Source of the DNA: Ignavibacteria bacterium
GTDB taxonomy: Bacteria; Bacteroidota; Ignavibacteria; Kapaibacteriales; Kapaibacteriaceae
Direction of reading: 5' to 3'
Length of the DNA: 64,000 nucleotides
Assembly: GCA_013204605.1 (NCBI GenBank)
Contig: JABMNI010000041.1
Span: forward strand, 170 to 64,169
The notes beneath the pieces are model-generated. The model worked only from the letters and a program-made list of their open reading frames with translations, had not been told where the DNA came from and searched no databases. Below, one piece after another: positions 1 through 64,000 of the stretch (positions are counted from its first letter, which is position 1; each line of letters begins with the position of its first letter). The position numbers and the translations under genes are program-made.

Positions 1-235
1 TTTCGTACGGCGACAACTCGTCATTAATCACCAGTGGCACCTTGCCGTGTGGTGTTTCAAGAATGACGGATTCGGTGCTCTCCATGCCCCCAAGCATGTC
101 GGACTCGTGCTGAAGTTCGGCAATCCAGTTGTACAATGCGGATGACACAGCCAGCTCGTGAGGGGGCTTACCATGTTCGTTTGCGTATCGTTCAACCGAA
201 GCAAAAACTTCATCAAATGCATCAAACCAGTCCAT
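1..235 (-). CDS. Hypothetical protein, runs off the left edge (3' partial)
   Basis: ATG at 235 opens a frame MDWFDAFDEVFASVERYANEHGKPPHELAVSSALYNWIAELQ...TPHGKVPLVINDELSPYE that stays open to the edge; not in the supplied ORF track. Confidence 0.6.
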   Translation of the reverse strand, partial: MDWFDAFDEVFASVERYANEHGKPPHELAVSSALYNWIAELQHESDMLGGMESTESVILETPHGKVPLVINDELSPYE

Positions 236-479
236 TTTTCCTACTTTTTCTATGTAAAAATGGCAAAACGCCAGACCACATACAACAACCTCGCAAGCGC
301 CCCGAAGTTACCCATGAGTTATTAACACACAGCCTGGGAGAGCCCCTTTTACCATTAATTCGCGTTTTTTCCATATTTTAACACTCTTTTCTCGGGCCCT
401 AAACTTGTTTCAATAACCTTTAGCGACGAATGCGATGCGGAGGGCCGCGCAAAGTAATTCGTTTGGTTCGGAGTATTAC

Positions 480-2732
480 ATGTCGGAACAGACAGAAGAT
501 CAAAATGAAGTTACACAGGACAGTTCAGCCGATACGGCGAACGATGCGCCTGAAGTAGCTGTGGAAGTGGTGGAAGAAGAAACAGTTGCAGTACCGGAAG
601 CTCCGGTAGCGGTGGCTGAAGAAGTAGTTGAAGAACAAGTAAGCGCAGTTGAGGCTGTTGCAGCACAAACAACATTTGTTGAAGAGACATCGATGGAATC
701 GATTGCTATGCGTGCTGCTCAAAAAGCAATCAACACAAAATCTGCCATGGCTAAAATTCTCGAAGGGGAGTTGGATGACGTGTCGATGACAGATGATGCG
801 TTTAGAAGCTTGTTCGATGACAAACTTTCACGTGTAAAAGAAGATGAGATGGTTCACGGTACAGTGGTATCGGTAACCAAGGATGAAATTTTAGTCGACA
901 TCGGATTCAAATCACTAGGTATTGTTCCGCGCGCTGAATTTGTTGGTGCCGAGACTTTGTTACCGGGTGATGGCGTTGACGTATTTGTTGAGAAGATAGA
1001 AGATGGCGAAGGACGACTAATTCTTAGTCGACGTCGCGCTGACTTCATGAAAACTTGGGAAGATATTCTTAAGCTTCATGAAACTCAGGCTATCACTCCT
1101 GTACACATTCTGCGTAGAATCAAGGGTGGAATGGTTGTTGACCTTTTGGGTATCGAGGCCTTCCTTCCGGGATCGCAAATCGATGTTCGTCCGGTTCGTG
1201 ACTTCGACGCATGGGTTGGAAAAACTCTCGACGTTCGTGTAGTTAAGGTAAATCATCCTAGCGAGAACGTTGTTGTAAGTCATAAGGTATTGCTTGAAGA
1301 GCACTTGGCTGAACAACGCGGAAAAATTCTTGAGCTACTTGAGAAGGGTCTTGTACTTGAAGGTGTGGTTAAAGCAATCGCAGACTTCGGAGTATTTGTT
1401 GACCTTGGTGGTGTTGATGGTTTGGTACACATCACAGATCTATCATGGGGTAGAGTTACTCATCCAAGTGAGATTGTTCAACTTGATGAGCACGTTAAAG
1501 TTGTGGTCCTTGAGTACGATGAGAATCGCAAACGAATCTCGTTGGGAATGAAGCAACTAACACCTCATCCATGGGATCAGATTTCGGAACGTTACGAGCC
1601 GAACTCGACGGTATCCGGCAAGGTTGTTTCCTTGACTGACTACGGCGCGTTTATTGAAATTGAAAAAGGTGTTGAAGGCTTGATTCACATTAGTGAGATG
1701 AGCTGGACTCAGCACGTTAAGCATCCATCGCAGGTTGTGAGCTTGGGTCAAGTTGTTAACGCGGTTGTATTGAGTATCGACAAAGGCGAGCGCAAACTTG
1801 CCCTTGGTATGAAGCAACTCGAGCCTGATCCTTGGAACGACCTAACAGCTAAGTATCCGGTTGATTCAACGCACAAAGGTATTGTTCGCAACCTCACCAA
1901 CTTTGGTGTGTTTGTTGAACTTGAGCCTGGTGTTGATGGACTGGTTCACATTTCTGACCTTTCTTGGACAAAGAAAATTCGTCATCCGGGTGAGTTTGTG
2001 AAGAAGGGCGACGAACTTGATGTTATCGTTCTTGCTATCGACAACGAGCACCGTCGGATTTCTCTTGGCCATAAGCAGATCAGCGAAAACCCATGGGATA
2101 TCTTTGAGAACGAATTTGGTGTTGGCACCGAAACTGAAGGTAAAATCATTCGCATCATCGATAAAGGTGTGATTGTTGAACTTCCTCAGGGTGTTGATGG
2201 ATTCGTTCCGGTATCACAACTTTCGTTCGCACCTGTTCGGAACATTGCAGACTTCTTCAACCCTGATGATACGTTGATGATTAAGGTTGTAGAGTTTGAT
2301 AAAGAGCAGAAGAAGATTGTTCTTTCCGCAGTTGAGTATTTGCGCGGTAGAGGTGCCGAAGAGATTGACGCATACAATGCGAAACACCCGGTTCCAAATG
2401 CTGACAAATACAATACGGACGGTTCGGCTTCAACTTCGACAACCATGGAAGATCTTGAAGATTCTTTCCCGGTTGAAGAATTGGGTCTGGACTATTCTGG
2501 AATTCAGATTCCCGACATCATTATCGACGAAGATGATAATGGTGACCGCGTTGTAGAACCAGTCAAAAAAGCTCCAAAGGCGAAGGCGAAAGCTAAAGTT
2601 GTCGCTGAGGCTCCGGCTGAAGTTGTTGCTGAGGCTGCTGCTGAAGTTGCTGCTGAGGCTGCTGCTGATGACGTAGCTGCTGACGACGCTCCTGCAGAGG
2701 ATGCCGCTAGCACGGAAGAGCCAACAGCGTAA
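480..2732 (+). CDS. rpsA: 30S ribosomal protein S1
   Basis: Six S1 repeats (e.g. FGVFVDLGGVDGLVHITDLSW, YGAFIEIEKGVEGLIHISEMSW); GGAG just upstream of ATG at 480; long acidic/Ala-rich N- and C-terminal extensions. Confidence 0.97.
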   Translation: MSEQTEDQNEVTQDSSADTANDAPEVAVEVVEEETVAVPEAPVAVAEEVVEEQVSAVEAVAAQTTFVEETSMESIAMRAAQKAINTKSAMAKILEGELDDVSMTDDAFRSLFDDKLSRVKEDEMVHGTVVSVTKDEILVDIGFKSLGIVPRAEFVGAETLLPGDGVDVFVEKIEDGEGRLILSRRRADFMKTWEDILKLHETQAITPVHILRRIKGGMVVDLLGIEAFLPGSQIDVRPVRDFDAWVGKTLDVRVVKVNHPSENVVVSHKVLLEEHLAEQRGKILELLEKGLVLEGVVKAIADFGVFVDLGGVDGLVHITDLSWGRVTHPSEIVQLDEHVKVVVLEYDENRKRISLGMKQLTPHPWDQISERYEPNSTVSGKVVSLTDYGAFIEIEKGVEGLIHISEMSWTQHVKHPSQVVSLGQVVNAVVLSIDKGERKLALGMKQLEPDPWNDLTAKYPVDSTHKGIVRNLTNFGVFVELEPGVDGLVHISDLSWTKKIRHPGEFVKKGDELDVIVLAIDNEHRRISLGHKQISENPWDIFENEFGVGTETEGKIIRIIDKGVIVELPQGVDGFVPVSQLSFAPVRNIADFFNPDDTLMIKVVEFDKEQKKIVLSAVEYLRGRGAEEIDAYNAKHPVPNADKYNTDGSASTSTTMEDLEDSFPVEELGLDYSGIQIPDIIIDEDDNGDRVVEPVKKAPKAKAKAKVVAEAPAEVVAEAAAEVAAEAAADDVAADDAPAEDAASTEEPTA

Positions 2733-2815: not shown

Positions 2816-4102
2816 ATGTTACAAGACCCCAACAAAGAATTACTCCACCAATTGTTTGCCATGACGTTCCAAGGCATCAAGCCGGGATTGGAACGCATTC
2901 AACAAATGTTGCAGACGCTGAATAATCCACACCTTTTGTTTCCCGTAATTCATGTTGCAGGTACAAACGGTAAGGGCAGTACAAGTAGCATTCTTGCTTC
3001 GGTTTTGCGAAGCGCGGGGTACAAGGTTGGACTCTACACTTCACCGCACATCGTCAGCTTTAACGAGCGCATAAAAATCAACGCGGAAAATATTTCCGAC
3101 TCCGACGTGGCACGCCTGGCAAGCCCCCTAATGGAAGAAGCTAGACAGATTGGCGGAACATTTTTCGAGGTGACTACTGCAATGGCGTTTCAGTATTTCG
3201 CTGAGCAGCGCGTGGATGTGGCCGTGATTGAAGTGGGCATGGGCGGACGGCTGGATGCGACAAATGTGGTGGAGCCAATTTTGAGTGTGATCACGGCAAT
3301 CGATTTAGATCACACGGAATATCTGGGGAATACCATCGCAAAAATTGCCGCTGAGAAAGGGGGCATTATTAAATGCGGAATTCCAGTTATCGTTTCGGAA
3401 CAGTCGCCGCATCACCGAGCTGAGGTATATAAAACGCTCACCGACATTGCAGAAAAAATAAATTCGCAAGTGGTTTTTGCCGATGATGTAGTAAAGGTCG
3501 AAATCGATCACGTTCATCCCGATCTTAGCATGAGTGTAAGCGTTATCGACGATGATTTTTTGCATTACTACAACGTAGATATTGCCGGTGCGCATCAGGC
3601 CGCAAACGTTGCGACAGTTTTGGCGGCGATTCCATTTTTGCAACGACTCTATTTCATAAACGCCGATCAGCTGCGTTATGGAATCGAGCATGTACGAGAG
3701 CAGAGTGGCCTGTATGGTCGCGTAACGCTCATAAACAAAACGCCGACCACCGTGCTTGACGTTTCGCACAATCCTGCCGGCATTACAACATTGGCCAACA
3801 CGCTGTCGGCCGCTGGCTATGTCACTCCGAATTGGAACGTTGTGTTTGGCGCTATGCAAGACAAAGATGTCGCGGGCATGCTAAAAGCTGCAGCTGTTTT
3901 TGCCGGACATTTCCATTTGTGCACACCTAAAATTGCTCGCGCAGCATCGGTTGACGAACTTGAAAAACTACTAACTGAATTCAGTTCAATTTCGTACACC
4001 GTTCACGCATCTGTCGCTGATGCATTTAGGTCAGCACAACTTGCCGGTCCAACTATTGTATGCGGATCATTTCACGTTGCCGACGAAGTTCTCACCTCGT
4101 GA
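2816..4102 (+). CDS. folC: Folylpolyglutamate synthase/dihydrofolate synthase
   Basis: IHVAGTNGKGS P-loop, GLYTSPH, EVGMGGRLDATN, DLDHTEYLG, DVSHNPAG, VCGSF. Confidence 0.95.
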   Translation: MLQDPNKELLHQLFAMTFQGIKPGLERIQQMLQTLNNPHLLFPVIHVAGTNGKGSTSSILASVLRSAGYKVGLYTSPHIVSFNERIKINAENISDSDVARLASPLMEEARQIGGTFFEVTTAMAFQYFAEQRVDVAVIEVGMGGRLDATNVVEPILSVITAIDLDHTEYLGNTIAKIAAEKGGIIKCGIPVIVSEQSPHHRAEVYKTLTDIAEKINSQVVFADDVVKVEIDHVHPDLSMSVSVIDDDFLHYYNVDIAGAHQAANVATVLAAIPFLQRLYFINADQLRYGIEHVREQSGLYGRVTLINKTPTTVLDVSHNPAGITTLANTLSAAGYVTPNWNVVFGAMQDKDVAGMLKAAAVFAGHFHLCTPKIARAASVDELEKLLTEFSSISYTVHASVADAFRSAQLAGPTIVCGSFHVADEVLTS

Positions 4103-4183
4103 TAACCATGTACTCAGCACGCACTTACCACGCACTCACCTCGTGATAACCAGGTACTCAGCACGCACTTACCACGCACTCAC
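4091..4183. repeat. 44-bp tandem duplication between convergent folC and menA-like genes
   Basis: CTCACCTCGTGATAACCA(T/G)GTACTCAGCACGCACTTACCACGCA at 4091-4134 and 4135-4178, one mismatch. Confidence 0.9.
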
Positions 4184-4190
4184 TACACAC

Positions 4191-5450
4191 TCACCACGTA
4201 ACAACTAACGCAAGCGCAAATAATACCGTAGCAACAATCTGAAGTTTAATGGTGTTCACATTAGCCTTCACCAGAGTTCTAAGCAAGATGTGTTTGCGCA
4301 TATACGAGATAATCCATGCACCGTACATTAAGCTCACCAGTGCTGAGATGTTGAGAAGGGGCTTTCCATACATTAGCCCAAGCCACACTGTGACTGCAAT
4401 GCTGAGCATCCAAAACATTGAGTAGAAAAGTATGGCGCTCTTTTTTCCGAACGTTACGATGAGATGATTTTTTCCTGTAGAGGCATCGCCCTCTTCGTCG
4501 GGCACTTGATTAAGAACCAAAATATTTGTGGTTAGAAGTCCCGCCGGAATTCCAAACAAAAATGCTTCCCAAGAATATGCGGAAGTAAGAACGTAGTGCA
4601 TTCCCATCGTAATTAACGGACCGAAGGCCAGTCCAATAACAATCTCTCCCAGACCATGCCTGGCAACCAGTCTGATGGGCGGCGCGGTGTAAAAGAAGCC
4701 CAGGAACAAACCAATGGTTCCTATCACAAGCACTCCTGTGCCAACAACGCTGGTTAAATAGACGCCAATAACTAGTGCTGCAATAGCCAAACCAATGGCC
4801 ACATTTCTAGTACCTTTTAAATCTATCAATCGCATTTCAATTGCTCTGCTGCCACCCGAATACTGCACAAAATATTTCGAGTTTGCAGCATCAGTTCCAT
4901 TCTTAACATCGAAATAATCATTAAAAACATTGCTAGCCAAATGTAGGAATGCTACGCCCAGAATGGCAAGTATTGCATGTGTCCACACAATCGGAATTCC
5001 TACTACACCACTACTATATGCCAGTCCAATAAATGTCGGTGTCAACGCCGCGGTCAAAAACGGAGCTCTGGTGATAACTAACCACCGAATAATTTTCGTA
5101 GCAGTTTTAATTGGAACATCAACTACTTCACTCAACTCCTCTGTTACGCCGCAATAACCAATTTGCACCCCGCCTTTAAACGTCGGTGAAATTCTAATTC
5201 GAGCACCGAATTCGTCACCGTTCTTTCGAATAAAAACAGTGTCGGTCACATACTCGCCATCCTTCACCGCAGAAGTAAGCCACGTGTTCAAATTCTGAAG
5301 GACAATCTCGCCCGGCGAAAACAACGAAACGCGCTGCCTCGAAACAACCTCTTGTGCATTATACCCAAACATTGCCTCGGCACCCGAACTAAACGTTTCT
5401 ATGATGCCTTCCATATCACACGTGATAACCGATTTGTCTGCAGCCGCCAT
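4191..5450 (-). CDS. PAS-domain / MenA-like (UbiA family) prenyltransferase fusion
   Basis: N-terminal PAS fold (VITCDMEGIIETFSSGAEAMFGY...RKNGDEF); C-terminal multi-TM UbiA motifs NVFNDYFDVKNGTD, GGSR, YTAPPIRL, NQVPDEEGDASTGK. Confidence 0.85.
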   Translation of the reverse strand: MAAADKSVITCDMEGIIETFSSGAEAMFGYNAQEVVSRQRVSLFSPGEIVLQNLNTWLTSAVKDGEYVTDTVFIRKNGDEFGARIRISPTFKGGVQIGYCGVTEELSEVVDVPIKTATKIIRWLVITRAPFLTAALTPTFIGLAYSSGVVGIPIVWTHAILAILGVAFLHLASNVFNDYFDVKNGTDAANSKYFVQYSGGSRAIEMRLIDLKGTRNVAIGLAIAALVIGVYLTSVVGTGVLVIGTIGLFLGFFYTAPPIRLVARHGLGEIVIGLAFGPLITMGMHYVLTSAYSWEAFLFGIPAGLLTTNILVLNQVPDEEGDASTGKNHLIVTFGKKSAILFYSMFWMLSIAVTVWLGLMYGKPLLNISALVSLMYGAWIISYMRKHILLRTLVKANVNTIKLQIVATVLFALALVVTW

Positions 5451-5632: not shown

Positions 5633-7159
5633 ATGCAAAAAACAGCGCTGTTATCCGTTTCAGATAAGACAGGAATTACCGAACTAGCAAAACACCTACA
5701 TGACCTTGGATATCGCATAATGTCGACCGGTGGCACCGCAAAAGCGGTAAGCGAAGCCGGAATTCCGGTGGTTTCGGTGTCTACAATTACGGGCTTTCCT
5801 GAAATAATGAACGGTCGCGTAAAAACACTACACCCGAACGTTCACGGTGGACTGCTGGCAGTGATGGACAATCCGTCGCACGTAAAAGCTCTGAAGGAAC
5901 ATGGTATCGACAAAATAGATGTCCTAGTTGTAAATCTGTATCCGTTCGAAGCAACCGTGGCGAAGGCCGATGCAACACACGAAGAAGTGATAGAAAATAT
6001 CGACATCGGTGGACCAGCCATGGTGCGCGCAGCAGCAAAAAATTATTTGCACACCGTTGTTGTCGTCAACCCAGATCGGTATGCAGAGTTGACAACCATG
6101 CTCACAAATAACGACGTACCAAAAACCACTCGTCTCAATCTCGCGCTCGAAGCGTTTGCGCACACCGCTCAATACGACGCACGTATCGCGCAGTATCTAA
6201 CCACGTTTACAAAAAACGAAAACATTCGCGAGACTGCAATCCCCTTGCGCGTAGATCAACACTTGCGATACGGCGAGAACCCGCACCAAACTGCAACGCT
6301 GTACGGCGATTTCACAAAAATTTTTACACAACTGCACGGCAAGGAATTGTCGTACAATAACATCATCGACATCGACGCCGCAGCAAAACTCTGCACAGAA
6401 TTTTCACAGCCTGCCGTAGTAATCGTTAAGCACACAAACCCTTGCGGCGTGGGCATTGCAGACACCCTCACCGACGCATGGCACAAGGCCTTCGCCACCG
6501 ATACAGTAAGCCCCTTTGGCGGAATAGTTGCTGTCAACCGCGAAGTTGACAAACAATTCGCCGAAACAATTCACAGCATTTTTACCGAGGTTGTAATTGC
6601 GCCGAGTTTCTCCGCAGAGGCACTCGAAATTCTGCAAAAGAAAAAAGATCGACGTCTAATGATTTCAAACGGCGAACTACTTGCAAATAATTTTGGCAAC
6701 GATTTCAAATCTGTGTCAGGGGGCTTTCTGGTTCAATCAACTGATGCGGCATTGTTAAATGCAGGCGCCTTAAAAGTTGTAACCGAGCGCAAACCAACTA
6801 CTGATGAAGAAGCTGCCATGATGTTCGCGTGGACAATTGCAAAGCACGTAAAAAGTAACGCAATTGTATATGCCGCCGCCGATCGTACGCTTGCCATTGG
6901 TGCGGGTCAGATGTCGCGGTTAGATTCCGCTCGAATTGCCGTGCGCAAGGCTGCCGACGCTAACATCCCGTTAGACGGCTGCGCAGTAGCATCAGATGCA
7001 TTTTTTCCTTTTGCCGATGGATTGCTGCAAGCCGCCGAGGCCGGTGCCACCTGCGTTATACAACCGGGCGGATCAATCCGCGACGAAGAAGTTATTGCCG
7101 CAGCTAATGAAAAGGGGCTTGCCATGATGTTCACTGGAATGCGCCACTTCAAGCACTAA
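5633..7159 (+). CDS. purH: Bifunctional AICAR transformylase/IMP cyclohydrolase
   Basis: ALLSVSDKTG, GRVKTLHP, IDIGGP, LRYGENPHQ, KHTNPCG, SDAFFPF, RHFKH. Confidence 0.97.
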   Translation: MQKTALLSVSDKTGITELAKHLHDLGYRIMSTGGTAKAVSEAGIPVVSVSTITGFPEIMNGRVKTLHPNVHGGLLAVMDNPSHVKALKEHGIDKIDVLVVNLYPFEATVAKADATHEEVIENIDIGGPAMVRAAAKNYLHTVVVVNPDRYAELTTMLTNNDVPKTTRLNLALEAFAHTAQYDARIAQYLTTFTKNENIRETAIPLRVDQHLRYGENPHQTATLYGDFTKIFTQLHGKELSYNNIIDIDAAAKLCTEFSQPAVVIVKHTNPCGVGIADTLTDAWHKAFATDTVSPFGGIVAVNREVDKQFAETIHSIFTEVVIAPSFSAEALEILQKKKDRRLMISNGELLANNFGNDFKSVSGGFLVQSTDAALLNAGALKVVTERKPTTDEEAAMMFAWTIAKHVKSNAIVYAAADRTLAIGAGQMSRLDSARIAVRKAADANIPLDGCAVASDAFFPFADGLLQAAEAGATCVIQPGGSIRDEEVIAAANEKGLAMMFTGMRHFKH

Positions 7160-7202: not shown

Positions 7203-9716
7203 TTACTTCGCGTTTCTACTCGCCTCATGTAGCACGTCCAAATTGTGCTGCACTTTCCCATATACAGTGTCTTCCGGAAAGGTTGAATCGGTACCAATCT
7301 CACCCGCAGGATACCGCATCATAATCTCCACTGCATCTTCTAACGTAGTAATTGGATAGATGAAGAATTTCTTTTTTCGGATAGCTTCAACAATTTCGTC
7401 ACGTAGCATTATGTCTGAAACGTTTTGATACGGTATTGCAACTCCTTGCGTGCCAGTTAGCCCCCTATCCATACAGACTTCAAAGAAGCCCGTAATTTTT
7501 TCGTTCACGCCACCGATTGGTTGCACGTCACCTTTTTGATTTATCGAGCCTGTTATGGCAAAATCTTGTCTGATGGGAATGTTGGAAATCGCCGAAAGCA
7601 AGATGAGAATTTCGGCCACAGATGCACTGTCGCCGTCGATGCCGCCATACGATTGTTCAAACGCAATACTGGCCGTAAACGATATTGGTTGAGAGCGAGA
7701 GAAAAGCGATCGCAGTAGTCCCGATAATATCAACACGCCCTTAGAGTGGATGGCTCCACTCATATCAACCTCGCGCTCGATGTTCACGATGCCGGCGTTT
7801 CCGGCACTGACAGTAGCTGTGATGCGCGATGGTTTGCCGTATGCTACAATGCCGGCTTCGTATACAGTTAGTCCATTAATCTGACCCACTCGTTCGCCCT
7901 TGACATCGATTAGCAATGTCCCTTTTGTTATCTCTTCGCGCATCTGTATATCCACGCTGTTGCTGCGCCACCTGCGTTGCTCCAACGCGTGTAAAACATG
8001 TGTACGGGTTACAATTTTGCCACCATTGATTTTTGCAAAATGAGAAGCCTCCCGAAAAACATCAGCAACGTAGCTGAATTGAAGCGAGATTTTCGATTTC
8101 GATTCCGAGTATGCCACGGCCCACTCTACTATAGCTGAAGCGCCCGATGCATTACAGTGTAATAACGATTCCTCCTGCGCAAGCCGGTGAAAAAATCGAC
8201 AATAGTTCTGCACCATTGTGACCGAAAGTTTTGCCGTATCATCGAATTGCGAATGCACCTTAAACATTTTATGAAAGTCTTCATCGGCCGCCCACAAGGC
8301 ATCATAGATGCTCGGATCTCCAAGCAATATCACCTTAACATTCACCTTAATCCATTCGGGATTTATTTGGTTAAGTTGCATTTGATTTTCGGGTGACTGT
8401 ATCTCCAATCGGTTGTACAGTAGCACTTTCTTTAACGCATTCCAAAGCGTTGCATCAGCTAACAAATCCATTGCATTCAGAACAATGTATCCACCATCGG
8501 CACGCAACAAAGAACCCGCGCGAATATTTGTAAAGTCACTCACCACAAACCCGCTCGAGTCCATGCGCTTTTCGATCGTACCAAATAAACTCGCAAACGT
8601 TGGCGACGTTTCAACAAGGATCGGCGCCGTCTTCGTATCGTAGTTGTCTACAATCAAATTCACATAATGCTTTCGTTCAAGAACCTTGATCTGCTCATCT
8701 GCAACGGGATCCACCACACCTGCCTGTTGAGCAGAATACGCTTTGACGTATTCTTCCAAATGCCGCAACAAGAACGCCGTAACGCCCAACAAATATTGCT
8801 CAACTCGTTCGCGTGGAAAACTGTGTCGAACATCCGATAATACTGCATTTAGTAAAATCTCCACAGCAACTCGGTCATGCTTAGAAAGTTCGCGTTTGAA
8901 ATTCGTCATTAGGCGCAACGACCTTCTACCCAAATCATTCAATTCGTCGCGGTGAATCGCATATTTTTTGCGAATTTTTTCAACCTCTTTCAGCGTAATC
9001 CCACCCTTCGCCAGCAATTCGTCCAGCTCATCTGGTGAAAGGGGCTTTCCATCTACTAAGGGGAATATCTCGGAGCGCGTTGTGCCGTCTTCTTCCTGCA
9101 GTTGACCGAGCACGAAGCCCACCGGACGCAACTTTGCATCGTACTCTTGCAAGAGGTCTTGCTCCAAGGTCTGATACCGCTGAATAATTTCTTTGCGTTT
9201 CGATTGAAATTGTTCCTCGTCGAAAAGCATTGGGATGCGGCGCTTAATCACGGTAAAGCAATCCGACATCATCTCCTTAAATACTCGACCTTCTCCAACA
9301 TCAAAACGTAGCAACACCGGACACTCTGGCTGTTTAAAATTGTACACGTAGGCAAAGTCATATAACTCTTCAACTAAATGTTTGTGCTCATCCAAGATTT
9401 GCCTAACCGTTGTCATTCTTCCTGTACCAACCACGCCAGAAGCCCAAATGTTATAGCCTTGACTTCTAATTTGTGCGCCCAAACGTATGGCTTCGATGGC
9501 CCTATCCTGTCCGACAATTTTATTGAGGGGTATTAACTCTCGCGTCGTTTTAAACTTCACCCACTTTGTAGGACATACCCATTGTGCGTCTGCCGCAGTC
9601 AAAGGCACAAACTTTCGGAGCATGGCCACAGGAACCGCAGGCTTTGCAGTTTTCAGTCTTTTTTTCGAAGCTGTAGTAGGTGTTTTCTTACTTACATCAG
9701 AATTTTTCTTTGCCAT
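7203..9716 (-). CDS. Lon-like (LonB/LonC-type, AAA_32) protease
   Basis: IVGQDRA, degenerate Walker A GVVGTGRMT, GQINGL, EQSYGGIDGDSAS (catalytic Ser), GGVNEKI (catalytic Lys). Confidence 0.9.
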   Translation of the reverse strand: MAKKNSDVSKKTPTTASKKRLKTAKPAVPVAMLRKFVPLTAADAQWVCPTKWVKFKTTRELIPLNKIVGQDRAIEAIRLGAQIRSQGYNIWASGVVGTGRMTTVRQILDEHKHLVEELYDFAYVYNFKQPECPVLLRFDVGEGRVFKEMMSDCFTVIKRRIPMLFDEEQFQSKRKEIIQRYQTLEQDLLQEYDAKLRPVGFVLGQLQEEDGTTRSEIFPLVDGKPLSPDELDELLAKGGITLKEVEKIRKKYAIHRDELNDLGRRSLRLMTNFKRELSKHDRVAVEILLNAVLSDVRHSFPRERVEQYLLGVTAFLLRHLEEYVKAYSAQQAGVVDPVADEQIKVLERKHYVNLIVDNYDTKTAPILVETSPTFASLFGTIEKRMDSSGFVVSDFTNIRAGSLLRADGGYIVLNAMDLLADATLWNALKKVLLYNRLEIQSPENQMQLNQINPEWIKVNVKVILLGDPSIYDALWAADEDFHKMFKVHSQFDDTAKLSVTMVQNYCRFFHRLAQEESLLHCNASGASAIVEWAVAYSESKSKISLQFSYVADVFREASHFAKINGGKIVTRTHVLHALEQRRWRSNSVDIQMREEITKGTLLIDVKGERVGQINGLTVYEAGIVAYGKPSRITATVSAGNAGIVNIEREVDMSGAIHSKGVLILSGLLRSLFSRSQPISFTASIAFEQSYGGIDGDSASVAEILILLSAISNIPIRQDFAITGSINQKGDVQPIGGVNEKITGFFEVCMDRGLTGTQGVAIPYQNVSDIMLRDEIVEAIRKKKFFIYPITTLEDAVEIMMRYPAGEIGTDSTFPEDTVYGKVQHNLDVLHEASRNAK

Positions 9717-44505: not shown

Positions 44506-44513
44506 ATTTCTGC

Positions 44514-50928: not shown

Positions 50929-50978
50929 AAACACCTCAATGTTAAAAACTTAAACGCAGTATTTATACTGAATTGACA

Positions 50979-51443: not shown

Positions 51444-51492
51444 CGCAATTCGTAACTCGCAATTCGTAATTCCTAATTCGTAATTCGAAATT
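51444..51492. repeat. Heptamer tandem repeats (AATTCGT/AACTCGC)
   Basis: CGCAATTCGTAACTCGCAATTCGTAATTCCTAATTCGTAATTCG; same family at 14190, 39030 and 59875. Confidence 0.8.
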
Positions 51493-51496
51493 GTTT

Positions 51497-52864: not shown

Positions 52865-52927
52865 CTATTTTTGCCCTCTGCTCGTCAGTGACGAGCCTTA
52901 AATTCATTGTTTCCGAAACACTCAGAA

Positions 52928-56431: not shown

Positions 56432-57451
56432 ATGAAAATTTTGAGACGTATTCTGTGGTCGCTTTTAGGCTTAGTTGTAGCCGTAATGATAGTGGGATTG
56501 TTTTTGCCTTCGCAGGTAAGTATCGAGCGCTCAATAGTGGTAAAAGCTGATGCAGCCGAGGTGTACGATTTGATTGCCAACCCCACCAACTTCAGCAAAT
56601 GGTCGCCATGGCACGAAAAAGATACGGCCATGGAGATTACATTTTTTGACCCACTTTATGGCAAGGGGGCTGGGTATACGTGGAAGAGTGAGGTTAGTGA
56701 AGTAGGCTCCGGACGGTATGAGATAATCAGCGTTGATCCCGGCAAGCAGATAGATGTGGAGATGAATTGGGACGAAATGGGTCCGTCGTTCGCAAAGTAT
56801 ATTATTACGCAAGATCCCGCCGGAAGCAAGCTCGTATGGACGTTCGAAAAGGATATGGGCAGTTGGCCTCTAATGCGCTGGATGGGTTTACTAATGGACC
56901 CTATGCTAGGATCGGACTATGAGAAGGGTCTGGCTAAATTCAAGACCGTCATTGAAAAAGCCCCCAAGGCGCACGTAGCCAGTATTTCGGAGCAGCAATT
57001 TCCCGGAATGGACATACTTTCAGTTACCAGCACCATTAATCCGCGCCTGATTGGTTCAACCTTGGCCAAGAGTTACGGCGCTATTATGCAAAACATGGGC
57101 TGGCACAACCTAACAATGATGGGCAGCCCGATGGCAATCTATCACACATGGTCGCCTTCAAAAACCACGATGGAAGCGGCCGTTCCCGTGGCATTAATGC
57201 CTGTGAGCGCTGGCAAAATGGACCTGGGCGGCGAAGTTATTGTCGGTCAAATGAAACCCGGCGCGACGGTCGTTGCGGACTACTTCGGACCTTACGAGCG
57301 CACCGGAATGGCACATGATGCACTAGCAAACTGGGCCATCAAGAACGGGAAGCAATTAATGGATGCGCCGTGGGAGATCTACGTCACAGACCCAACAACC
57401 GAGCCCGACCAAAGCAAATGGAACACCAAGGTTTGCTATCGGGTTAAGTAA
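56432..57451 (+). CDS. SRPBCC + GyrI-like domain protein
   Basis: N-terminal TM, ERSIVV...WSPW, DYEKGLAKFK; C-terminal GPYE...PWEIYVTDP. Confidence 0.88.
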   Translation: MKILRRILWSLLGLVVAVMIVGLFLPSQVSIERSIVVKADAAEVYDLIANPTNFSKWSPWHEKDTAMEITFFDPLYGKGAGYTWKSEVSEVGSGRYEIISVDPGKQIDVEMNWDEMGPSFAKYIITQDPAGSKLVWTFEKDMGSWPLMRWMGLLMDPMLGSDYEKGLAKFKTVIEKAPKAHVASISEQQFPGMDILSVTSTINPRLIGSTLAKSYGAIMQNMGWHNLTMMGSPMAIYHTWSPSKTTMEAAVPVALMPVSAGKMDLGGEVIVGQMKPGATVVADYFGPYERTGMAHDALANWAIKNGKQLMDAPWEIYVTDPTTEPDQSKWNTKVCYRVK

Positions 57452-57468
57452 TCGAAGTAACTTTGCAC

Positions 57469-58020
57469 GTGGCAAATCCATTCAGTTCTGCATCGGTTAA
57501 AACATTTTCGGTCCTTTTTGCACTTGGAGGCACCATTTGGTTGGGTGCAACCATTGCAAGAACCGCAATTGGTTTTGATGTTTTTGAAGGGGGCTCTCTG
57601 ATTTTCAAGGAGTGGCAACCTGTAGAAGTAAGACTGCATGTTATCTGGTTGTTCTCCATGTTGGGCGCACTTACTGGATGGTCGTTCCTATTGGCCACAA
57701 TTGGCGCTGTTGGCAACCTGTTTTTATTGCGTCAGCATACCAAACAACACGGTTGGATAATGATGGCCGCCATCATGTTTTTGCTCATGTTACCCGTCCA
57801 AATGTACCTATCGTGGCAAGATTTCCATCTGTGGCGATTGTTCGATCCGTATACCGGAATGCCCCTTGCCAAGACCGATGAAATATTCAGTGTCTTTTTA
57901 ATGCGCTACACAAACGTGCTTATTAACGTCGCAACCGGCATGCTTGTCCTGATGGGCGTAACGCTGGTAATGGTGTTAGCGGCACGACCGCTAAGCAAAT
58001 GTGAGAATGTGGAAATTTGA
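57469..58020 (+). CDS. Hypothetical membrane protein
   Basis: Four hydrophobic segments; probable GTG start. Confidence 0.7.
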   Translation: MANPFSSASVKTFSVLFALGGTIWLGATIARTAIGFDVFEGGSLIFKEWQPVEVRLHVIWLFSMLGALTGWSFLLATIGAVGNLFLLRQHTKQHGWIMMAAIMFLLMLPVQMYLSWQDFHLWRLFDPYTGMPLAKTDEIFSVFLMRYTNVLINVATGMLVLMGVTLVMVLAARPLSKCENVEI

Positions 58021-58180
58021 GAATGACAATGTGGAAATGCAAATGTGAGAATGTGGAAATTTGAGAATGACAATGTGGAAATGCAAATGTGTAAATGCAA
58101 ATGTGTAATTGAGTAGATATGTAAATGAGTAGTTATGTAAATGAGTAGATATGAGAATGCCAACAAAACGTTTCAAAGCT

Positions 58181-58215
58181 CCTATCCGCAAGTAGGGGCG
58201 ACGCATGCGTCGCCC
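58181..58215 (+). repeat. GTAG-type REP-like palindrome
   Basis: CCTATCCGCAA-GTAG-GGGCGACGCATGCGTCGCCC. Confidence 0.85.
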
Positions 58216-58582: not shown

Positions 58583-59652
58583 CATCCGAATTAAATTCAG
58601 AGTCGACGGGAACGCCCGAAACACAAGGCACAGAAGAAAAGTCAAAAAGGAAGAGTGCATCAGTTGAGCCTGATAAGAAAAGTGCATCTGTAATATCTGA
58701 TAAGAAAAGTGCAATTGGAATGAGTGAATCGAACGAGGCGGTTAGCGCGTCTGGCATGGCGGTGTTCAAATGTGGTCAGGTGGCAATTGTTGGACGCCCT
58801 AACGTTGGCAAATCCACGCTGATGAATACCATTCTCGGTGCTCACTTAAGCATTGTTACGCCAAAGCCGCAGACCACGCGCAAGCGCGTGTTGGGAATTC
58901 ATTCGGCGAATGACACGCAGATGATTTTTATTGATACACCAGGAATTTTGAAACCGCGGTATAGAATGCAGCGGACCATGATGGAATATGTTCATCAAAC
59001 GCTTCAGGAATCCGACGTGGTGTGTGTGATTATCGATGCGGTGCGAGGTTTGGAAAATAAAAGTTTCATCGATCCAATGATCGACGAAGTGTTGGTTGGA
59101 GTAACAACGCCAATAATCTTGGTGATCAATAAAATGGACGCTATAAGTGTGCCCAGCTTGATCCCGCCGCTCATCGAAGAAATGCGCGTTCGAGGTGCCT
59201 TTGCGAAGGCCGTGGCTGTGAGTGCACTTGAGAATAAAGAAGTAGACGCACTGCTTGAAATTCTTTCTGGCTACATGCCGGAAAGCCCCTTTCTATATGA
59301 TGCTGACCAATTGAGTTCCCTGCCTGAGAGATTTTTTGTTGCTGAACTTGTGCGCGAAGTAATTTTCGAACGCTTTAAAGATGAAATCCCCTACTCCACC
59401 GATGTAACGGTAATTGAGTTTAAAGAACGCGAACGAGGCAAGTGGCTAATTGCGGCCGATATCTACGTGGAGCGTGACACGCAGAAGGCCATCATAATTG
59501 GCAGTGGAGCTAGCGCGTTGAAGGATGTTGGAATGGCCGCACGGCAGCGCATAGAAGCACACCTTGGTGCACAAGTATACCTTGAGCTGTTCGTTAAGGT
59601 GCGAGCCGACTGGCGGAACGATCCTGCGCAGCTGATGAACCTCGGCTATTAA
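58579..59652 (+). CDS. era: GTPase Era
   Basis: GRPNVGKST, PQTTR, DTPG, NKMD, EIPYS, KH-domain IIIG; low-complexity N-terminal extension. Confidence 0.96.
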   Translation: MTSELNSESTGTPETQGTEEKSKRKSASVEPDKKSASVISDKKSAIGMSESNEAVSASGMAVFKCGQVAIVGRPNVGKSTLMNTILGAHLSIVTPKPQTTRKRVLGIHSANDTQMIFIDTPGILKPRYRMQRTMMEYVHQTLQESDVVCVIIDAVRGLENKSFIDPMIDEVLVGVTTPIILVINKMDAISVPSLIPPLIEEMRVRGAFAKAVAVSALENKEVDALLEILSGYMPESPFLYDADQLSSLPERFFVAELVREVIFERFKDEIPYSTDVTVIEFKERERGKWLIAADIYVERDTQKAIIIGSGASALKDVGMAARQRIEAHLGAQVYLELFVKVRADWRNDPAQLMNLGY

Positions 59653-59714: not shown

Positions 59715-59808
59715 GATGCGTTCCTATCTTCGAGTAGGATGCGTTCCTATCTTCGAGTAGGAGCGACGCATGCGTCGCCCGCGTATTGAACGCCCCATGC
59801 GTCGCCCT
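59715..59808 (+). repeat. REP-like palindrome with duplicated flank
   Basis: GATGCGTTCCTATCTTCGAGTAG twice, then GAGCGACGCATGCGTCGCCC at 59761-59780 and a half-site near 59796. Confidence 0.8.
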
Positions 59809-59937: not shown

Positions 59938-60726
59938 ATGCCTTTTAAACTCATGCCGATGTCCCGTTTTGTGCTGCTTCGTTTAGTAGTGCTTCGTATT
60001 GCGCCGCTGTTTGCCGTTGCTTTTCTTGTTGCGTGTGGCACTTCGGAGAAAAGTCAGCAACAGCAAACCGTCGAGGAAGTATACACGTCGGCTATGGCCA
60101 ACTATAACGATGGCGACTGGAACGCGGCGATTTCGCAGTTCGACATTATAAAACTGCAGTACCCGGCAAGTCAGTTTGCCGATGATGCGCAGTATATGTT
60201 GGCAGAAATTAATTTCAAACGAAGTGAATACATTATTGCCGCATTTAATTACAGTATGGTGCGCCGCTCGTATCCAACTAGCGATTTAGCAAAGCCGGCC
60301 ATGTATAAAGCGGCCCTGTGTTACAACGAAATAGCCGGTCCGCCGGATCGCGATCAAGAATACACACGCAAGGCAATCCAAGCATTTTCGGAGTTTCAGA
60401 GTGTGTATCCGGTAGATAGTTTGGCATTGGAATGCGTGGTTCATATCCACGAATTGCGCTCGCGTCTCGCGGAACGCTACATGATTGTAGCCGAGCATTA
60501 CGTTACAACACGTTCGTTGAAGTCGGCACTCATCTATTACGACGCTGTAATGGATGAATACCCTGATTCGAAGTGGTACGAAATGGCCGTGGTAGAAAAA
60601 GTTCGAACGCAGTTAGCAATGAAAAAAATTGAGGAAGCTCGCGCGACTGTGACGGTGTACAGAAGAACAGTGAAGGACCCAAAACTTGCATCTCAAATGG
60701 ATGCACTCGAGAAAGAAATACCATGA
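59938..60726 (+). CDS. bamD: Outer membrane protein assembly factor BamD
   Basis: Lipobox LVAC, TPRs (YPASQFADDAQY), RDQEYTRKAI, YPDS. Confidence 0.92.
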   Translation: MPFKLMPMSRFVLLRLVVLRIAPLFAVAFLVACGTSEKSQQQQTVEEVYTSAMANYNDGDWNAAISQFDIIKLQYPASQFADDAQYMLAEINFKRSEYIIAAFNYSMVRRSYPTSDLAKPAMYKAALCYNEIAGPPDRDQEYTRKAIQAFSEFQSVYPVDSLALECVVHIHELRSRLAERYMIVAEHYVTTRSLKSALIYYDAVMDEYPDSKWYEMAVVEKVRTQLAMKKIEEARATVTVYRRTVKDPKLASQMDALEKEIP

Positions 60727-61205
60727 TGAAGCCCCCTGCAGAATCGACTGTTATAATGACGGAGTTAGTGCTGCCGAATGATACAAATCAGTTGGGCAAC
60801 TTATTGGGAGGACGCTTGATGCACTGGATTGACATTGCGGCGGCTCTAAGTGCGCAGCGGCACGCCAGCAAGGTTTGTGTTACGGCATCGGTAGATGAAA
60901 TTAGTTTCAACGAACCAATCAGACTGGGTCATGTAGTTCACATTAGGTCTGTGGTAACCCGCTCATTTCGCACATCGATGGAGGTGTTGGTGGAAGTTGA
61001 ACGTGAGGATCCATTGCACGGATCACGCGCCCACACTTCAACCGCCTACTTGACCTTTGTGGCAATCGATCAGTACGGCCGACCGCTTCCGGCAAATGGA
61101 GTGGACCCTCAAACCGAAGATGAAAAAAGACGCTTTGAAGAAGCTTCCATTCGTCGAGAAGCACGATTGCGTGAACGCGAAGCAATTTCTGAGCGGAGGA
61201 AATGA
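60723..61205 (+). CDS. Acyl-CoA thioesterase (hotdog fold)
   Basis: VLPNDTN.LG.LLGG.LM.WID, VTASVD, FRTSMEV, TFVAID. Confidence 0.93.
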   Translation: MMKPPAESTVIMTELVLPNDTNQLGNLLGGRLMHWIDIAAALSAQRHASKVCVTASVDEISFNEPIRLGHVVHIRSVVTRSFRTSMEVLVEVEREDPLHGSRAHTSTAYLTFVAIDQYGRPLPANGVDPQTEDEKRRFEEASIRREARLREREAISERRK

Positions 61206-61209: not shown

Positions 61210-62523
61210 TTGAAAGGGGCTAAACCAGGATTCATTTTTTCAATGTTGTGTGTGTGTGTAGTTTTCATTGTTACACCTCAGATTTCAAGTAGCACCGACG
61301 TAGCGTTGCGCTTCATTCGGAGCTATGGTGCAAACAATGAATTGTTGCCACCCATTGTTTCTCTGGGTGGAGCCTCGGAAGATGTTCAAGGCTACGTTTC
61401 GGAGTTTGCAACAGTAGAATTTGATTTACGAAGCAACAATTATCCAAACGTATACGCGCGGTTGATTCATTGTCAGACGGATTGGACGGAGGATCAGAAC
61501 GCGTTTCTTTCCGATGTAACTAATCGCACAACCCTTGTGGACTGGAAGCTTGCGCCATCGCGAAGCACGTATTACACACATCGCGGAAAAATTCAAATTC
61601 CAAACGTTCAAATGCAACTTCGCTTTGCCGGCAATTGGAAGGTGAGAATTTTTGATATGGATGGCGATATCGTATTAGGTGAGGCAAAGATTTTCGTTGT
61701 GAAAGAAATGGCATCTGTGAACGTAAATTTTATGACTGATTTTTACGAGCCAAAGGCAAAGGTTTCTACCATTGCACTAACGCTGGAAGCCATTGTTAGA
61801 TCGGGCCGTGGCACCACGCTAATTGATGGCTATCAACACTCAACAGTTTTTTATCGTAATCACAGATGGAACGAACCGTTCATGGTGTCATCGAAATATT
61901 CCGAAGAAGATAATCCGCCAAGTACAACAACAGGCACGGCAGGAATTCTCAATGCGGGAAAAGTTTTTCGCATTGCGAAAATTCCGGCGGAGAATGAATA
62001 TCGAGTTCTGGATTTAACCAACCTTGCAATGTATCCGTTTACGGGTCAGCCGGTGCGAATGCCGCTCTCGGATTTGCGCCGCAATGGAATGTTCATTCAG
62101 CGCGCCGATGATGGTGCCATGGTAACAAGTACCGTGAGCGGTGTGAATGATGAGTATGTTCCGATAGAATTTCTGCTTAACCCGGACCCCGGAGCCCCCT
62201 CCGAAAATGATGTTTTTGTGTCTGGCTCGTTTAATCAGTGGAAGCCAGATAGGACGTGGATGATGTATTTCGATGAGACACTTAGGTTGTATAGGCTGCG
62301 TCAGTGGGTGCGCCGCGGACGCCACAACTACATGTATGCAACGGGCCGCGTGAATGCCGACAACGGATTGGTGGATAATTTGTCGTACGAGGAAATGGAA
62401 GGAAATACGGCCAGCGCTGGTATTGGATACCTTGCTTTTGCCTATTATCGCATTCCTGAATATGGTGGTTACGACGCAATAATTGGCGTGACTGCATCTA
62501 ACATTTATTTATCGAACAGATGA
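61210..62523 (+). CDS. DUF5103-like protein (T9SS plug-family candidate)
   Basis: [42 protein letters not shown] pattern; TTG start after GGAGG. Confidence 0.65.
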
Positions 62524-63554
62524 GAGACCGAAACAATCCTGAACTAGGCACGGCGAAAAACGACGACGAAGTGGAAGCCTCGTTGCGGCCACCTACGTTT
62601 AGTGAGTTTACCGGCCAAGATAAAATTGTAGAGAACTTAAAAATATTTATTGCTGCTGCGAAGAATCGTGGCGAAGCATTAGATCACGTTTTGTTGACGG
62701 GTCCGCCGGGACTTGGCAAAACCACGCTGTCGCACATTATTGCACGCGAGCTCGACGCACGCATTACAATGACGTCGGGTCCGGTTCTTGAAAAACCAGG
62801 CGACCTAGCCGGCCTACTCACCAACCTCGAAGAAGGCGACATTTTATTCATCGACGAAATTCACAGACTGAGTCCGATAGTTGAAGAATATTTATACTCA
62901 GCGATGGAAGATTTCAGATTAGACATCATGATCGACTCCGGCCCCGCAGCCCGTTCAGTTCAGCTCACCGTTCCACGTTTCACCCTCATTGGCGCCACAA
63001 CGCGCCAGGGTTTGCTCACTGCGCCACTGCGTTCTCGCTTTGGTATCACCAACCGCCTCGACTATTACAACGCCGAAGAATTATGCGGCGTAGTCCAACG
63101 CTCGGCAAGATTGTTGGGTGCCGCTATTGAATTGCAAGGGGCTATGGAGATCGCGAGAAGATCACGTGGAACACCAAGAATTGCAAACAGATTGTTACGC
63201 CGCACTCGCGACTTTGCCGAAGTAAAAGGTGATGGCGTAATCACAAAAAAAATTGCCGACGTTTCGTTAACTGCGTTAGACGTGGATGAGTATGGATTGG
63301 ATGAAATGGACACCCGAATCTGCATGACGATAATCGAAAAATTTGGTGGTGGTCCTGTTGGTTTATCAACTATCGCTGTTGCAGTGGGTGAAGAGTCGGG
63401 CACAATTGAAGAAGTGTACGAACCATTTTTGATTCAGCAAGGTTTTATTCAGCGCACTCCACGAGGGCGCATCACAACGCCTCTTGCCTACCAACATTTT
63501 GGCATCCAACGTCCACCAGCTGCCAGCGGACTTTTTGAGCAGGAATCATTATGA
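62520..63554 (+). CDS. ruvB: Holliday junction branch migration helicase RuvB
   Basis: [44 protein letters not shown]. Confidence 0.97.
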
Positions 63555-64000
63555 GAATTACAGCCGTTAAGCGCAAGTACACCGTTGTAAAAACTTTTGT
63601 GTTCATGAATGTTTTATTCGTTTGTGCATTCGCCGTACTCAGTTCCGCCGCATGTTCCTCTGCGCAAAAAATGGAGGGCACTGAAACGCAAGACTCAAGC
63701 ACCACAAAGCCCCTTGCCGACACTGCAGATGCTGTTCAAAAAAACACTGGGACTGATGCCGCACCCAAGAAAAAAAAGTCAGAAACGACTGAGAAGGCGC
63801 ATAATATTTTAGGTAGGGCTACTCGGTTAGTGTTGAGTTGCAAAGACGTGATTAAAAACATGAGTTGGTGGAGCAGGATTGGATTTGTTCCGATGGGTGC
63901 GATGGACCGACCGGATTCTGCGATGACGTTGAGCGATGGGCAGATTGTGATAACGCTGATTAAGGATCCGCTGCCGTCGCCGATTGTTATGTTCAGCACG
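63551..64000 (+). CDS. Putative lipoprotein with possible VOC/glyoxalase-like domain, 3' partial
   Basis: ATG overlaps the ruvB stop; hydrophobic stretch ending SAAC; frame open to the edge (LSCKDV...WWSRIGF...[10 protein letters not shown]). Confidence 0.6.

Follow-up and report, generated by a model that had tools for sequence, protein, structure and literature searches.

What maintains a short DNA word that recurs about once every 1.2 kb, on both strands and in every reading frame, in the genome of an uncultured bacterium? The question is raised by a stretch of 64,000 nucleotides (the window) from an Ignavibacteria bacterium of the Kapaibacteriaceae (assembly GCA_013204605.1, contig JABMNI010000041.1, positions 170 to 64,169 of the forward strand). 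An initial annotation of its letters had described a highly iterated motif with a variable run of four or five G residues and had proposed an undescribed signal for uptake, self-recognition or protein binding. In the window, AGGGGCT occurs 28 times and AGGGGGCT 25 times, compared to means of 3.40 (maximum 10) and 0.72 (maximum 4) in dinucleotide shuffles, none of 100 of which reached the observed number in either case. The sum of 53 copies (~4 expected), 29 on the plus and 24 on the minus strand, is the same as the earlier manual count, and all 15 of the 15 coordinates that had been offered as examples were found in the match lists.

The variable G run did not survive closer inspection. An A precedes 27 of the 28 AGGGGCT copies, and among the variants of run length AGGGCT occurs 12 times and AGGGGGGCT not at all, so that the word is a fixed octamer rather than a run of variable length. 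The exception, at 19502, is GAGGGGCT and is off consensus. When the 65 GGGGCT occurrences of the window were aligned, an A was found two bases upstream in 54 of them, while the base just 5' of GGGGCT was A in 28 and G in 28. The register is thus constant, and orthologous sites swap A and G at position 2 (see below); what had looked like four or five G residues is a choice of purine at the second position. The word is therefore ARGGGGCT, a non-palindromic octamer of fixed length with a purine at position 2. It has 52 sites in the window, 27 of AAGGGGCT and 25 of AGGGGGCT, at a strand ratio of 29:23 and a density of 0.81/kb. Its single-mismatch neighbours have 0-6 copies each in the window. In the 638,637 bp of the window and its relatives pooled, positions 1 and 3-7 are strict and enrichment is limited to variants with C or T at position 2 (~3x) and with A, C or G at position 8 (1.8-4.9x), as measured against order-3 expectations that are inflated by the motif itself. 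In the window, the flanks favour G upstream (48% at both -3 and -2) and, downstream, T at +8/+9 (54% each) followed by C at +10/+11 (42-44%), giving a loose quasi-palindrome, GGnARGGGGCTynCC, with at most 0.46 bit of information per position and little beyond ~4 bases on either side. The octamer differs from its reverse complement, and symmetric arms are seen only in the extended AAG-GGG-CTT form. No Rfam family matched the window at gathering thresholds (0 structured RNAs).

We chose 52 open reading frames (ORFs) for the window, which hold 49 sites with one site counted in two overlapping ORFs. Synonymous-codon shuffles within these ORFs gave a mean of 2.27 sites (sd 1.46, maximum 7, 500 runs), and shuffles of codon order a mean of 1.73 (maximum 8). 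Sites lie sense to the ORF in 28 cases, antisense in 20 and in intergenic or ORF-boundary DNA in 4; all six frames are used, and the peptides that the initial annotation had listed (KGL, KPL, SPF, GGF, RGL, EGA) were seen among them. The word therefore acts at the DNA level, independently of frame, and the earlier view that no peptide constraint explains it is borne out by the shuffles. G-rich codons (GGG, AAG, AGG) and the peptides KGL, RGL and SPF are indeed common, as an artefact of codon usage, amino-acid motifs, base composition or a dispersed repeat would have it. That explanation is scarcely credible, however, given ~2 sites in codon-preserving shuffles against 49 observed, the use of six frames and both strands, the intergenic copies, and the sister lineages described below, which encode identical peptides and do not use the word; a peptide, codon or composition origin was rejected on these grounds. 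A repeat element is countered by the lack of an Rfam match in the window and by the confinement of flank information to ~4 bases per side. A dispersed repeat of the REP (repetitive extragenic palindromic) or MITE (miniature inverted-repeat transposable element) type was likewise rejected, since flank information does not exceed 0.46 bit per position and 48 of the 52 sites lie inside ORFs, at codons that align with those of relatives.

Related DNA was collected by a search of genome contigs for RpsA, taken with 10-kb flanks, which yielded 80 loci (1,326,219 bp); the window's own genome was not among them. The related loci represent one conserved neighbourhood, partly homologous to 1-12.7 kb of the window and extending ~10 kb further upstream. 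RpsA segment identity reaches 85-88% in the best matches (89% over 573 tree columns), and the matching records are metagenome-assembled genomes (MAGs) titled mostly Candidatus Kapaibacterium, Ignavibacteria or Bacteroidota. A quick maximum-likelihood tree of RpsA (81 rows) has a branch that sets the window and 35 loci apart from the other rows (SH-aLRT, an approximate likelihood-ratio support, of 91.9, not starred). The word is present in all 36 of these 36 clade rows, at 0.18-1.51 sites/kb over a GC range of 0.47-0.59. One nearest group (L009/L011/L012) has 0 sites in 55.8 kb, the other (L007/L013/L008/L010) has 0-0.18 sites/kb, and the remaining 38 tree rows have 0-0.08 sites/kb. A density of at least 0.15 sites/kb is reached in 37 of the 81 rows, equivalent to 2 changes on the tree, the sole row outside the clade being L013, with 4 sites where 1.2 are expected. 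The 35 clade loci together carry 364 sites in 574,637 bp, compared to 23.6 expected. In an unbiased scan of their 8-mers, AGGGGGCT ranked first (178 against 9.1 expected), the second word overlapped AGGGGGCT, and AAGGGGCT ranked third (186 against 14.5). The same scan of the two sister groups (55.8 kb and 63.8 kb) revealed no comparable or alternative word that stands out, the top words having 8-18 counts. The enrichment is therefore not confined to the window, a possibility that had been named as fatal to the original proposal, and over-representation among k-mers, suggested there as a check, is seen in the relatives as well. Several window proteins carry sorting tails of the type IX secretion system (T9SS), which points to a host in the Fibrobacteres-Chlorobi-Bacteroidetes (FCB) group. 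Collectively, these results identify ARGGGGCT as a genomic word that characterises a single clade of uncultured bacteria of the FCB group and is absent from sister lineages with the same genes. We infer that it is spread through whole genomes; directly, it is seen in the 64-kb window and in one neighbourhood of the relatives.

Within the clade, a few loci differ in the preferred form, all at small counts. L045 has 9 copies of AGGGGGCA and 7 of AGGGGGCT, and L003 has 7 of AGGGGGCG and 5 of AGGGGGCT, each a possible dialect; in the highest-GC subclade (L049/L048/L043/L042/L046), G-ending words and ATGGGGCG are frequent. A palindrome, TTCATGAA, is 6-8-fold over the order-3 expectation in the 35 clade loci and in L007/L008/L010/L013, and is not significant in the window (5 copies, 2.5 expected). 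The latter four loci also have the overlapping G-rich words GGGGTGAC, CGGGGTGA, ACGGGGTG, GACGGGGT and GTGACGGG, 8-12 times each in 63.8 kb and 6-8x over expectation, which could be a different word or a local repeat. Several of the records placed among Kapaibacterium or Ignavibacteria MAGs on the basis of RpsA and synteny have discordant submitter titles (L002, L003, L004, L024, L040, L046, L053, L056 and others), including uncultured Hyphomicrobiales, Patescibacteria group, Chitinophaga pinensis, Bradyrhizobiaceae and Candidatus Didemnitutus.

The clade and its sisters share the syntenic block rpsA-folC-menA-purH-lonL-addB, with protein identities to the window that are alike in both groups (e.g. 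PurH, 62-72%). In codon alignments of these six genes, sites recurred patchily at the same columns in distant clade members, and a single sister site was found. The invariant PurH peptide VSPFG is encoded with AGC CCC TTY in 16 of the 26 clade rows that have sequence there and in 0 of 6 sisters, which mostly use AGT CCG. In LonL, the peptide D[R/K]GLT carries the word in 16 of 21 clade genomes, toggling between AGG GGG CT and AAG GGG CT, so that either form can stand in for the other even where this exchanges R and K. Where the peptides of the six genes permit the word, the window realises it at 11 of 19 positions and the 35 clade loci at 166 of 515 (13.1 expected from their own codon usage), compared to 1 of 83 in the sisters (2.0 expected). 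Of 207 aligned genome-positions of the clade, 64 (31%) have a site where the window has one, whereas other octamers are identical at 4.2%; where the peptide is identical, 48 of 74 are kept (65%), compared to 10.8% for other octamers. In the sisters, the corresponding numbers are 0 of 48 aligned positions and 0 of 12 with an identical peptide. Conservation in orthologues, which the initial annotation had put forward as a further check, is thus evident. In the rpsA alignment (43 rows), 12 rows share a site at one column and 5 at another, and the window's own rpsA (435-2732) has none. Tripeptides able to encode the word are modestly enriched in the clade (3.57 against 2.20 per 1000 aa; reversed control, 2.76 against 2.31). 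Sites arise by point substitution in existing codons, mostly synonymous and sometimes exchanging K and R, and not by insertion. The recurrence at orthologous positions, together with the absence from sisters that have the same genes, points to a sequence-specific process that creates or retains the word. A sequence-specific force acts on the DNA of this clade, and retention and repeated re-creation of sites are both compatible with these data.

One such force would be functionless. A sequence-specific bias in repair or conversion, for example by a mismatch endonuclease of the very-short-patch (VSP) type with its methyltransferase, could leave the word as a by-product. A clade-specific distribution is what a gained enzyme would produce, sites made by single substitutions at synonymous positions fit it, and the parallel use of the same permissive positions could be continual re-creation. 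Yet no depleted transition neighbour of the VSP type was found among the single-mismatch neighbours (C-to-T at position 7, 0.7x/1.7x; G-to-A at positions 3-6, 0.3-1.3x, values similar to those of the other neighbours and on the same inflated expectations). A bias internal to the cell should also in time affect non-ORF and acquired DNA equally, and both are poorer in the word (see below). VSP-related words in E. coli are far less enriched than 15-25-fold at eight specified positions. We consider an origin as a repair by-product unlikely.

The strands are balanced throughout. The ratio is 29:23 in the window and 219:197 in the window and relatives pooled, both strands are used in each of the 35 loci, and in the 25 loci with at least 8 sites the split is never more extreme than 7:3. 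This bears on polar signals, namely a Chi-like site for an AddAB-type nuclease, or a skewed octamer of the KOPS (FtsK-orienting polar sequence) or AIMS (architecture-imparting sequence) kind. The window does encode an AddB-like PD-(D/E)XK nuclease (ORF 9754-12582) and a PcrA/UvrD-like helicase, and the word is concentrated in core genes, as expected of such a signal. A polar word should, however, be strongly one-sided within 20 kb away from the origin or terminus, and the balance in the window and in all 35 loci excludes the Chi, KOPS and AIMS types, leaving to a polar signal only a very small probability. The earlier statement that the word is not strand-polarised therefore holds. Spacing regularity, another suggested check, was looked for in vain. 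The coefficient of variation (CV) of the spacing is 1.06 in the window, compared to 0.98 for random placement and indistinguishable from it. Across the 25 loci the mean CV is 0.975 (random, 0.932), and the one departure is a mild shortage of gaps below 100 bp (15 against 25.5). Convergent pairs within 60 bp number 8 in the 36 sequences, 5 of them being one orthologous pair inside purH.

The initial annotation had also proposed that the word is depleted in accessory islands. Its description of the gaps was correct in that the off-consensus copy at 19502 is the sole copy between those at 17435 and 24915, while the stretch from 46058 to the next copy at 51723 is empty, as is rpsA. In the window alone, depletion is marginal. 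The largest gap, of 7480 bp, has P = 0.079 and the second, of 5665 bp, P = 0.050 in 20000 random placements. The ORFs of the empty blocks have a GC content at third codon positions (GC3) of 0.36-0.41, compared to ~0.44-0.58 in most other ORFs; rpsA, also empty, has 0.40. The part of the claim that stands comes from the relatives, whose ORFs were called crudely (at least 100 aa, greedily) and classed as conserved or variable by the count of homologues among the clade loci. Conserved ORFs of the 35 loci carry 322 sites in 471,129 bp (0.68/kb), variable ORFs 24 sites in 68,754 bp (0.35/kb) and non-ORF DNA 11 sites in 39,675 bp (0.28/kb). A depletion of about two-fold in variable DNA is thus supported.

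[quoted passage not shown] The consulted parts of PMC2817400 give 0.80 USS/kb in H. influenzae and 0.89 DUS/kb in N. meningitidis, close to the 0.81/kb of the window, which is ~1/kb in each case. Like USS and DUS, ARGGGGCT occurs on both strands and in all frames and is made by mutation in place and not by insertion. USS and DUS each mark a clade at the level of a family; ARGGGGCT is clearly restricted to one clade, and its shifts at the weaker positions 2 and 8, seen at small counts, may be comparable to the DUS dialects treated in the portion of PMC3630211 that we used. It is also scarcer in variable DNA and its encodable peptides are modestly enriched; peptides encodable by USS and DUS are likewise enriched according to the same parts of PMC2817400. 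These parts further describe USS and DUS as scarcer than expected in coding DNA and often arranged as dyad terminators between genes, and state that no uptake signals are known in other Proteobacteria. Unlike USS and DUS, ARGGGGCT has 8 bp, one degenerate position and a lower fold excess; it is depleted outside ORFs, has no terminator dyads and is spaced no more evenly than random at scales of 20-64 kb; and its host is an uncultured FCB lineage and not a proteobacterium. Like HIP1, it is an octamer present about once per gene, over-represented tens-fold in and outside ORFs, and its sites are kept at orthologous positions beyond codon constraint, as reported for HIP1 in the sections of PMC5861425 at hand. 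HIP1, however, is a perfect palindrome that holds the sites of two known methyltransferases, whereas ARGGGGCT is asymmetric; the phylum is different, and the 10-90 kb periodicity reported for HIP1 extends beyond the 64-kb reach of this analysis. The likeness to Chi and to KOPS/AIMS is that of a short over-represented word concentrated in the core genome, with an AddB-like gene in the window; those words are co-oriented with replication and ARGGGGCT is strand-balanced in every locus examined. The open-access PubMed Central (PMC) and bioRxiv literature, searched without supplements, held no description of the word, in agreement with its being called undescribed; at least two of the four 8-mer strings stand in 185 papers, and the 20 of these that were listed contain primers and eukaryotic or viral sequences and no report of a genomic word. 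The same literature yielded no report of competence or uptake signals in Kapaibacteria or Ignavibacteria.

By analogy with these systems, we tentatively favour, at somewhat less than an even chance, a word that resembles an uptake signal and has spread through biased exchange of DNA. A receptor in the transformation machinery would prefer DNA fragments that carry ARGGGGCT. Alleles gaining the word would then be passed on more often through uptake and homologous recombination (molecular drive), so that in DNA common to the population the word would build up at any position where the protein can bear it, and recently acquired DNA would remain poor in it. The strict contacts would be positions 1 and 3-7 (A.GGGGC), with positions 2 and 8 soft and drifting between lineages. 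Biased uptake and recombination would fit the strand balance, the mutation in place, the clade restriction, the drift at soft positions, the scarcity in variable DNA and the imprint on the proteome. A stronger version, that ARGGGGCT is a genuine uptake or self-recognition sequence of a Kapaibacteria-like clade that evolved independently outside the Proteobacteria, in the FCB superphylum, with its own receptor and with dialects at positions 2 and 8, may also be true, and we hold it with slightly more reserve.

Several points weigh against biased exchange. No ComEC, DprA, competence, pilus or DNA-receptor gene was found among the 52 window ORFs, which represent 64 kb of one genome. The over-representation of ~15-25-fold is far from the 200-1000-fold quoted for USS and DUS, though ARGGGGCT is shorter and degenerate. 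Its density in non-ORF DNA is below that in conserved ORFs (0.28 against 0.68/kb), opposite to USS and DUS; terminator-type dyads were looked for in the 36 sequences and none were found; and spacing is not more even than random in the window or the 25 loci, at the 20-64 kb scale. The Poisson P values for the density classes (2e-4 and 4e-4) are overstated because pooled orthologous loci are not independent. Spread of the word has been seen in the window's own genome within these 64 kb, and preferential uptake of word-bearing DNA, the property that defines an uptake signal, is drawn from analogy. ARGGGGCT is accordingly not assigned to the USS/DUS family, since preferential uptake is a putative property here and intergenic enrichment, dyads and even spacing are not seen.

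Some of the same observations suit a word selected for nucleoid organisation, replication or repair bookkeeping, without transformation, either as a site bound by an abundant chromosomal protein specific to the clade or as the mark of an orphan methyltransferase. Orthologous retention far above that of other octamers is the argument made for selection on HIP1 (Xu et al., PMC5861425, in the sections at hand). Conserved gene bodies carry the word at a higher density than non-ORF DNA does, whereas a neutral drive should fill unconstrained DNA first, and the weak symmetric flanks, GGnARGGGGCTynCC, suggest a footprint of more than 8 bp. Such a role comes without a candidate protein or methyltransferase, however, and there is no regular spacing at scales of 20-64 kb, a periodicity of 10-90 kb being beyond the 64-kb reach. 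The lower density in variable genes is also not obviously expected of a structural array. We regard a binding or methylation word as somewhat improbable. HIP1 itself, for a long time without an assigned function, is now being tied tentatively to transformation (the available parts of 10.1101/2024.09.10.611283 and PMC13756078), so that this explanation may merge with biased DNA exchange.

Genes of the window include rpsA, folC, purH, pcrA, trpS, cysS, asd, murC, era, bamD and ruvB, and its sites are given here from left to right, each with its strand and, inside ORFs, the orientation and peptide. Two intergenic sites lie upstream of rpsA, AGGGGGCT at 161-168 (+) and AAGGGGCT at 341-348 (-). The rpsA ORF has acidic Glu/Val/Ala-rich extensions at both ends, and its annotated start is probably too far upstream. 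In folC there is one AGGGGGCT (antisense, SPL, 3122-3129, -), and in the menA-like ORF one AAGGGGCT (antisense, KPL, 4356-4363, +), at a column where 12 of 27 aligned genomes have a site. The gene purH has three: the AAGGGGCT in the invariant VSPFG described above (antisense, SPF, 6509-6516, -), AGGGGGCT at 6718-6725 (sense, SGGF, +) and AAGGGGCT at 7112-7119 (sense, KGL, +). The toggling LonL site is AGGGGGCT in the window (sense, RGL, 7459-7466, -), and the Lon-like ORF has a second site, AAGGGGCT at 9039-9046 (antisense, KPL, +). The AddB-like nuclease ORF carries AGGGGGCT at 10246-10253 (sense, KGA, -) and 11055-11062 (sense, EGGF, -), and AAGGGGCT at 11252-11259 (antisense, SPF, +) and 12113-12120 (sense, KGL, -). 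The hydrolase-like ORF 12705-13619 follows with AGGGGGCT at 13233-13240 (sense, RGL, +) and AAGGGGCT at 13607-13614 (sense, VRGS, +), and ORF 14739-16745 with AGGGGGCT at 15505-15512 (antisense, SPL, +) and 15877-15884 (sense, RGL, -) and AAGGGGCT at 16377-16384 (antisense, EPL, +). A AGGGGGCT in ORF 17300-18025 (antisense, SPL, 17435-17442, -) borders the first site-free block (17443-24914, 7.5 kb), which consists of T9SS-tailed BNR/sortilin-like ORFs with GC3 of 0.36-0.41 and holds only the off-consensus GAGGGGCT at 19502-19509 (-).

Beyond this block, the pcrA/uvrD-like ORF has AAGGGGCT at 24915-24922 (sense, ERGS, -) and AGGGGGCT at 25468-25475 (antisense, EPP, +), and an intergenic AAGGGGCT lies at 26947-26954 (+). 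The trpS ORF holds AGGGGGCT at 27702-27709 (sense, SGGY, -) and 28553-28560 (sense, RGL, -) and AAGGGGCT at 28693-28700 (antisense, KPL, +). Single AAGGGGCT sites, both sense and KGL, are found in ORF 29101-30687 (29668-29675, +) and in rpe (31305-31312, +). A block at 32200-36200 resembles mobile or defence DNA, with a HigA-type antitoxin domain fused to an IrrE/M78 peptidase (32539-33651) and a DUF4143 AAA ATPase (34914-36200). This block carries two sites, AAGGGGCT in the HigA/M78-like ORF (sense, ARGF, 32862-32869, +) and AGGGGGCT at the boundary of ORFs 33678-34898 and 34914-36200 (34908-34915, -). Four sites lie in cysS: AAGGGGCT at 37908-37915 (antisense, EPL, +), 38099-38106 (sense, ERGL, -) and 38976-38983 (antisense, KPL, +), and AGGGGGCT at 38852-38859 (sense, VGGY, -). 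The site counted twice is AAGGGGCT at 40723-40730 (-), in the overlap of ORFs 40373-40750 and 40707-41795 and sense in both. It is followed by AGGGGGCT in the mannose-1-P guanylyltransferase-like ORF (sense, AGGS, 41762-41769, -), AAGGGGCT in asd (antisense, KPL, 42356-42363, +), two AGGGGGCT in ORF 43774-44505 (sense, EGA, 44006-44013, +; sense, VGGY, 44337-44344, +), AAGGGGCT in the nitrilase-like ORF (antisense, SPF, 45173-45180, -) and AGGGGGCT in the BNR/T9SS ORF 45982-47235 (antisense, SPL, 46058-46065, +).

The second site-free block (46066-51722, 5.7 kb) covers the rest of the BNR ORF, an M4 metallopeptidase, an ORF of unknown function and 0.8 kb of intergenic DNA, with GC3 of 0.40 in its two large ORFs. 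Sites resume in murC, with AAGGGGCT at 51723-51730 (antisense, KPL, -) and 51929-51936 (sense, KGL, +) and AGGGGGCT at 52092-52099 (sense, KGA, +). Three sense AGGGGGCT sites then lie in the peptidyl-prolyl isomerase ORF 52907-55045 (KGGY, 53896-53903, +), ORF 56432-57451 (KGA, 56664-56671, +) and ORF 57463-58020 (EGGS, 57588-57595, +). The remainder are AAGGGGCT in era (antisense, SPF, 59284-59291, -), AGGGGGCT in ORF 60723-61205 (antisense, KPP, 60730-60737, -), AAGGGGCT and AGGGGGCT in the T9SS-plug-like ORF (sense, KGA, 61214-61221, +; antisense, GAPS, 62193-62200, -), AAGGGGCT in ruvB (sense, QGA, 63136-63143, +) and AAGGGGCT in ORF 63551-64000 (antisense, KPL, 63708-63715, -).

Other repeats were observed in the window. 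A perfect 20-base palindrome, GGGCGACGCATGCGTCGCCC, lies in a unit of ~170 bp that is present in ~3 tandem copies at 44507-45016, flanked by short CATT-type repeats with periods of 6 to 8. Further full or half copies of GGGCGACGCATGCGTCGCCC occur at 58196-58215 and 59761-59807, all in or beside intergenic DNA, and the half-word GGGCGACGCA has 9 copies where 0.08 are expected. The 165-aa ORF at 44483-44980, which has no family match, is probably this REP/MITE-like element rather than a gene. Tandem arrays of the heptamer TCGTAAT, ~7 copies each, were seen at 14234-14284 and 51443-51492; these arrays and a related 14-mer, ATTATGAATTACGA, are intergenic and lie beside gene starts or ends (14187-14284, 39031-39069 and 51443-51492). 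Intergenic tandem repeats are also found at 57995-58153 (periods 22/44, 14 and 16) and 4091-4200 (periods 11/22/44). A (GA)n/(CT)n run contains AGAGAGAGAG 11 times in overlapping windows and was not listed by Tandem Repeats Finder at its default score. At ~50700-51490, gene strand shifts from mostly minus to all plus over the 0.8-kb intergenic gap, where the GC skew also changes sign, from negative to positive; this change could be an effect of gene strand or a replication landmark.

Hyper-abundant, frame-independent genomic words are rare, and to our knowledge USS and DUS were for decades the only accepted uptake signals. A fourth such case would show that these words evolve repeatedly. The sharp core of ARGGGGCT and the existence of word-free sisters with the same syntenic genes make this clade a clean comparative system, in which one can ask which genes co-occur with the word. 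The word may also serve as a marker to bin these MAGs and to detect foreign DNA in them, and is a candidate handle for genetic tractability. If ARGGGGCT is instead a binding or methylation word, it would bear on how bacterial chromosomes are marked at a density of one per gene. If it is an uptake signal, these uncultured bacteria would be naturally transformable and would exchange core genes preferentially with their own kind.

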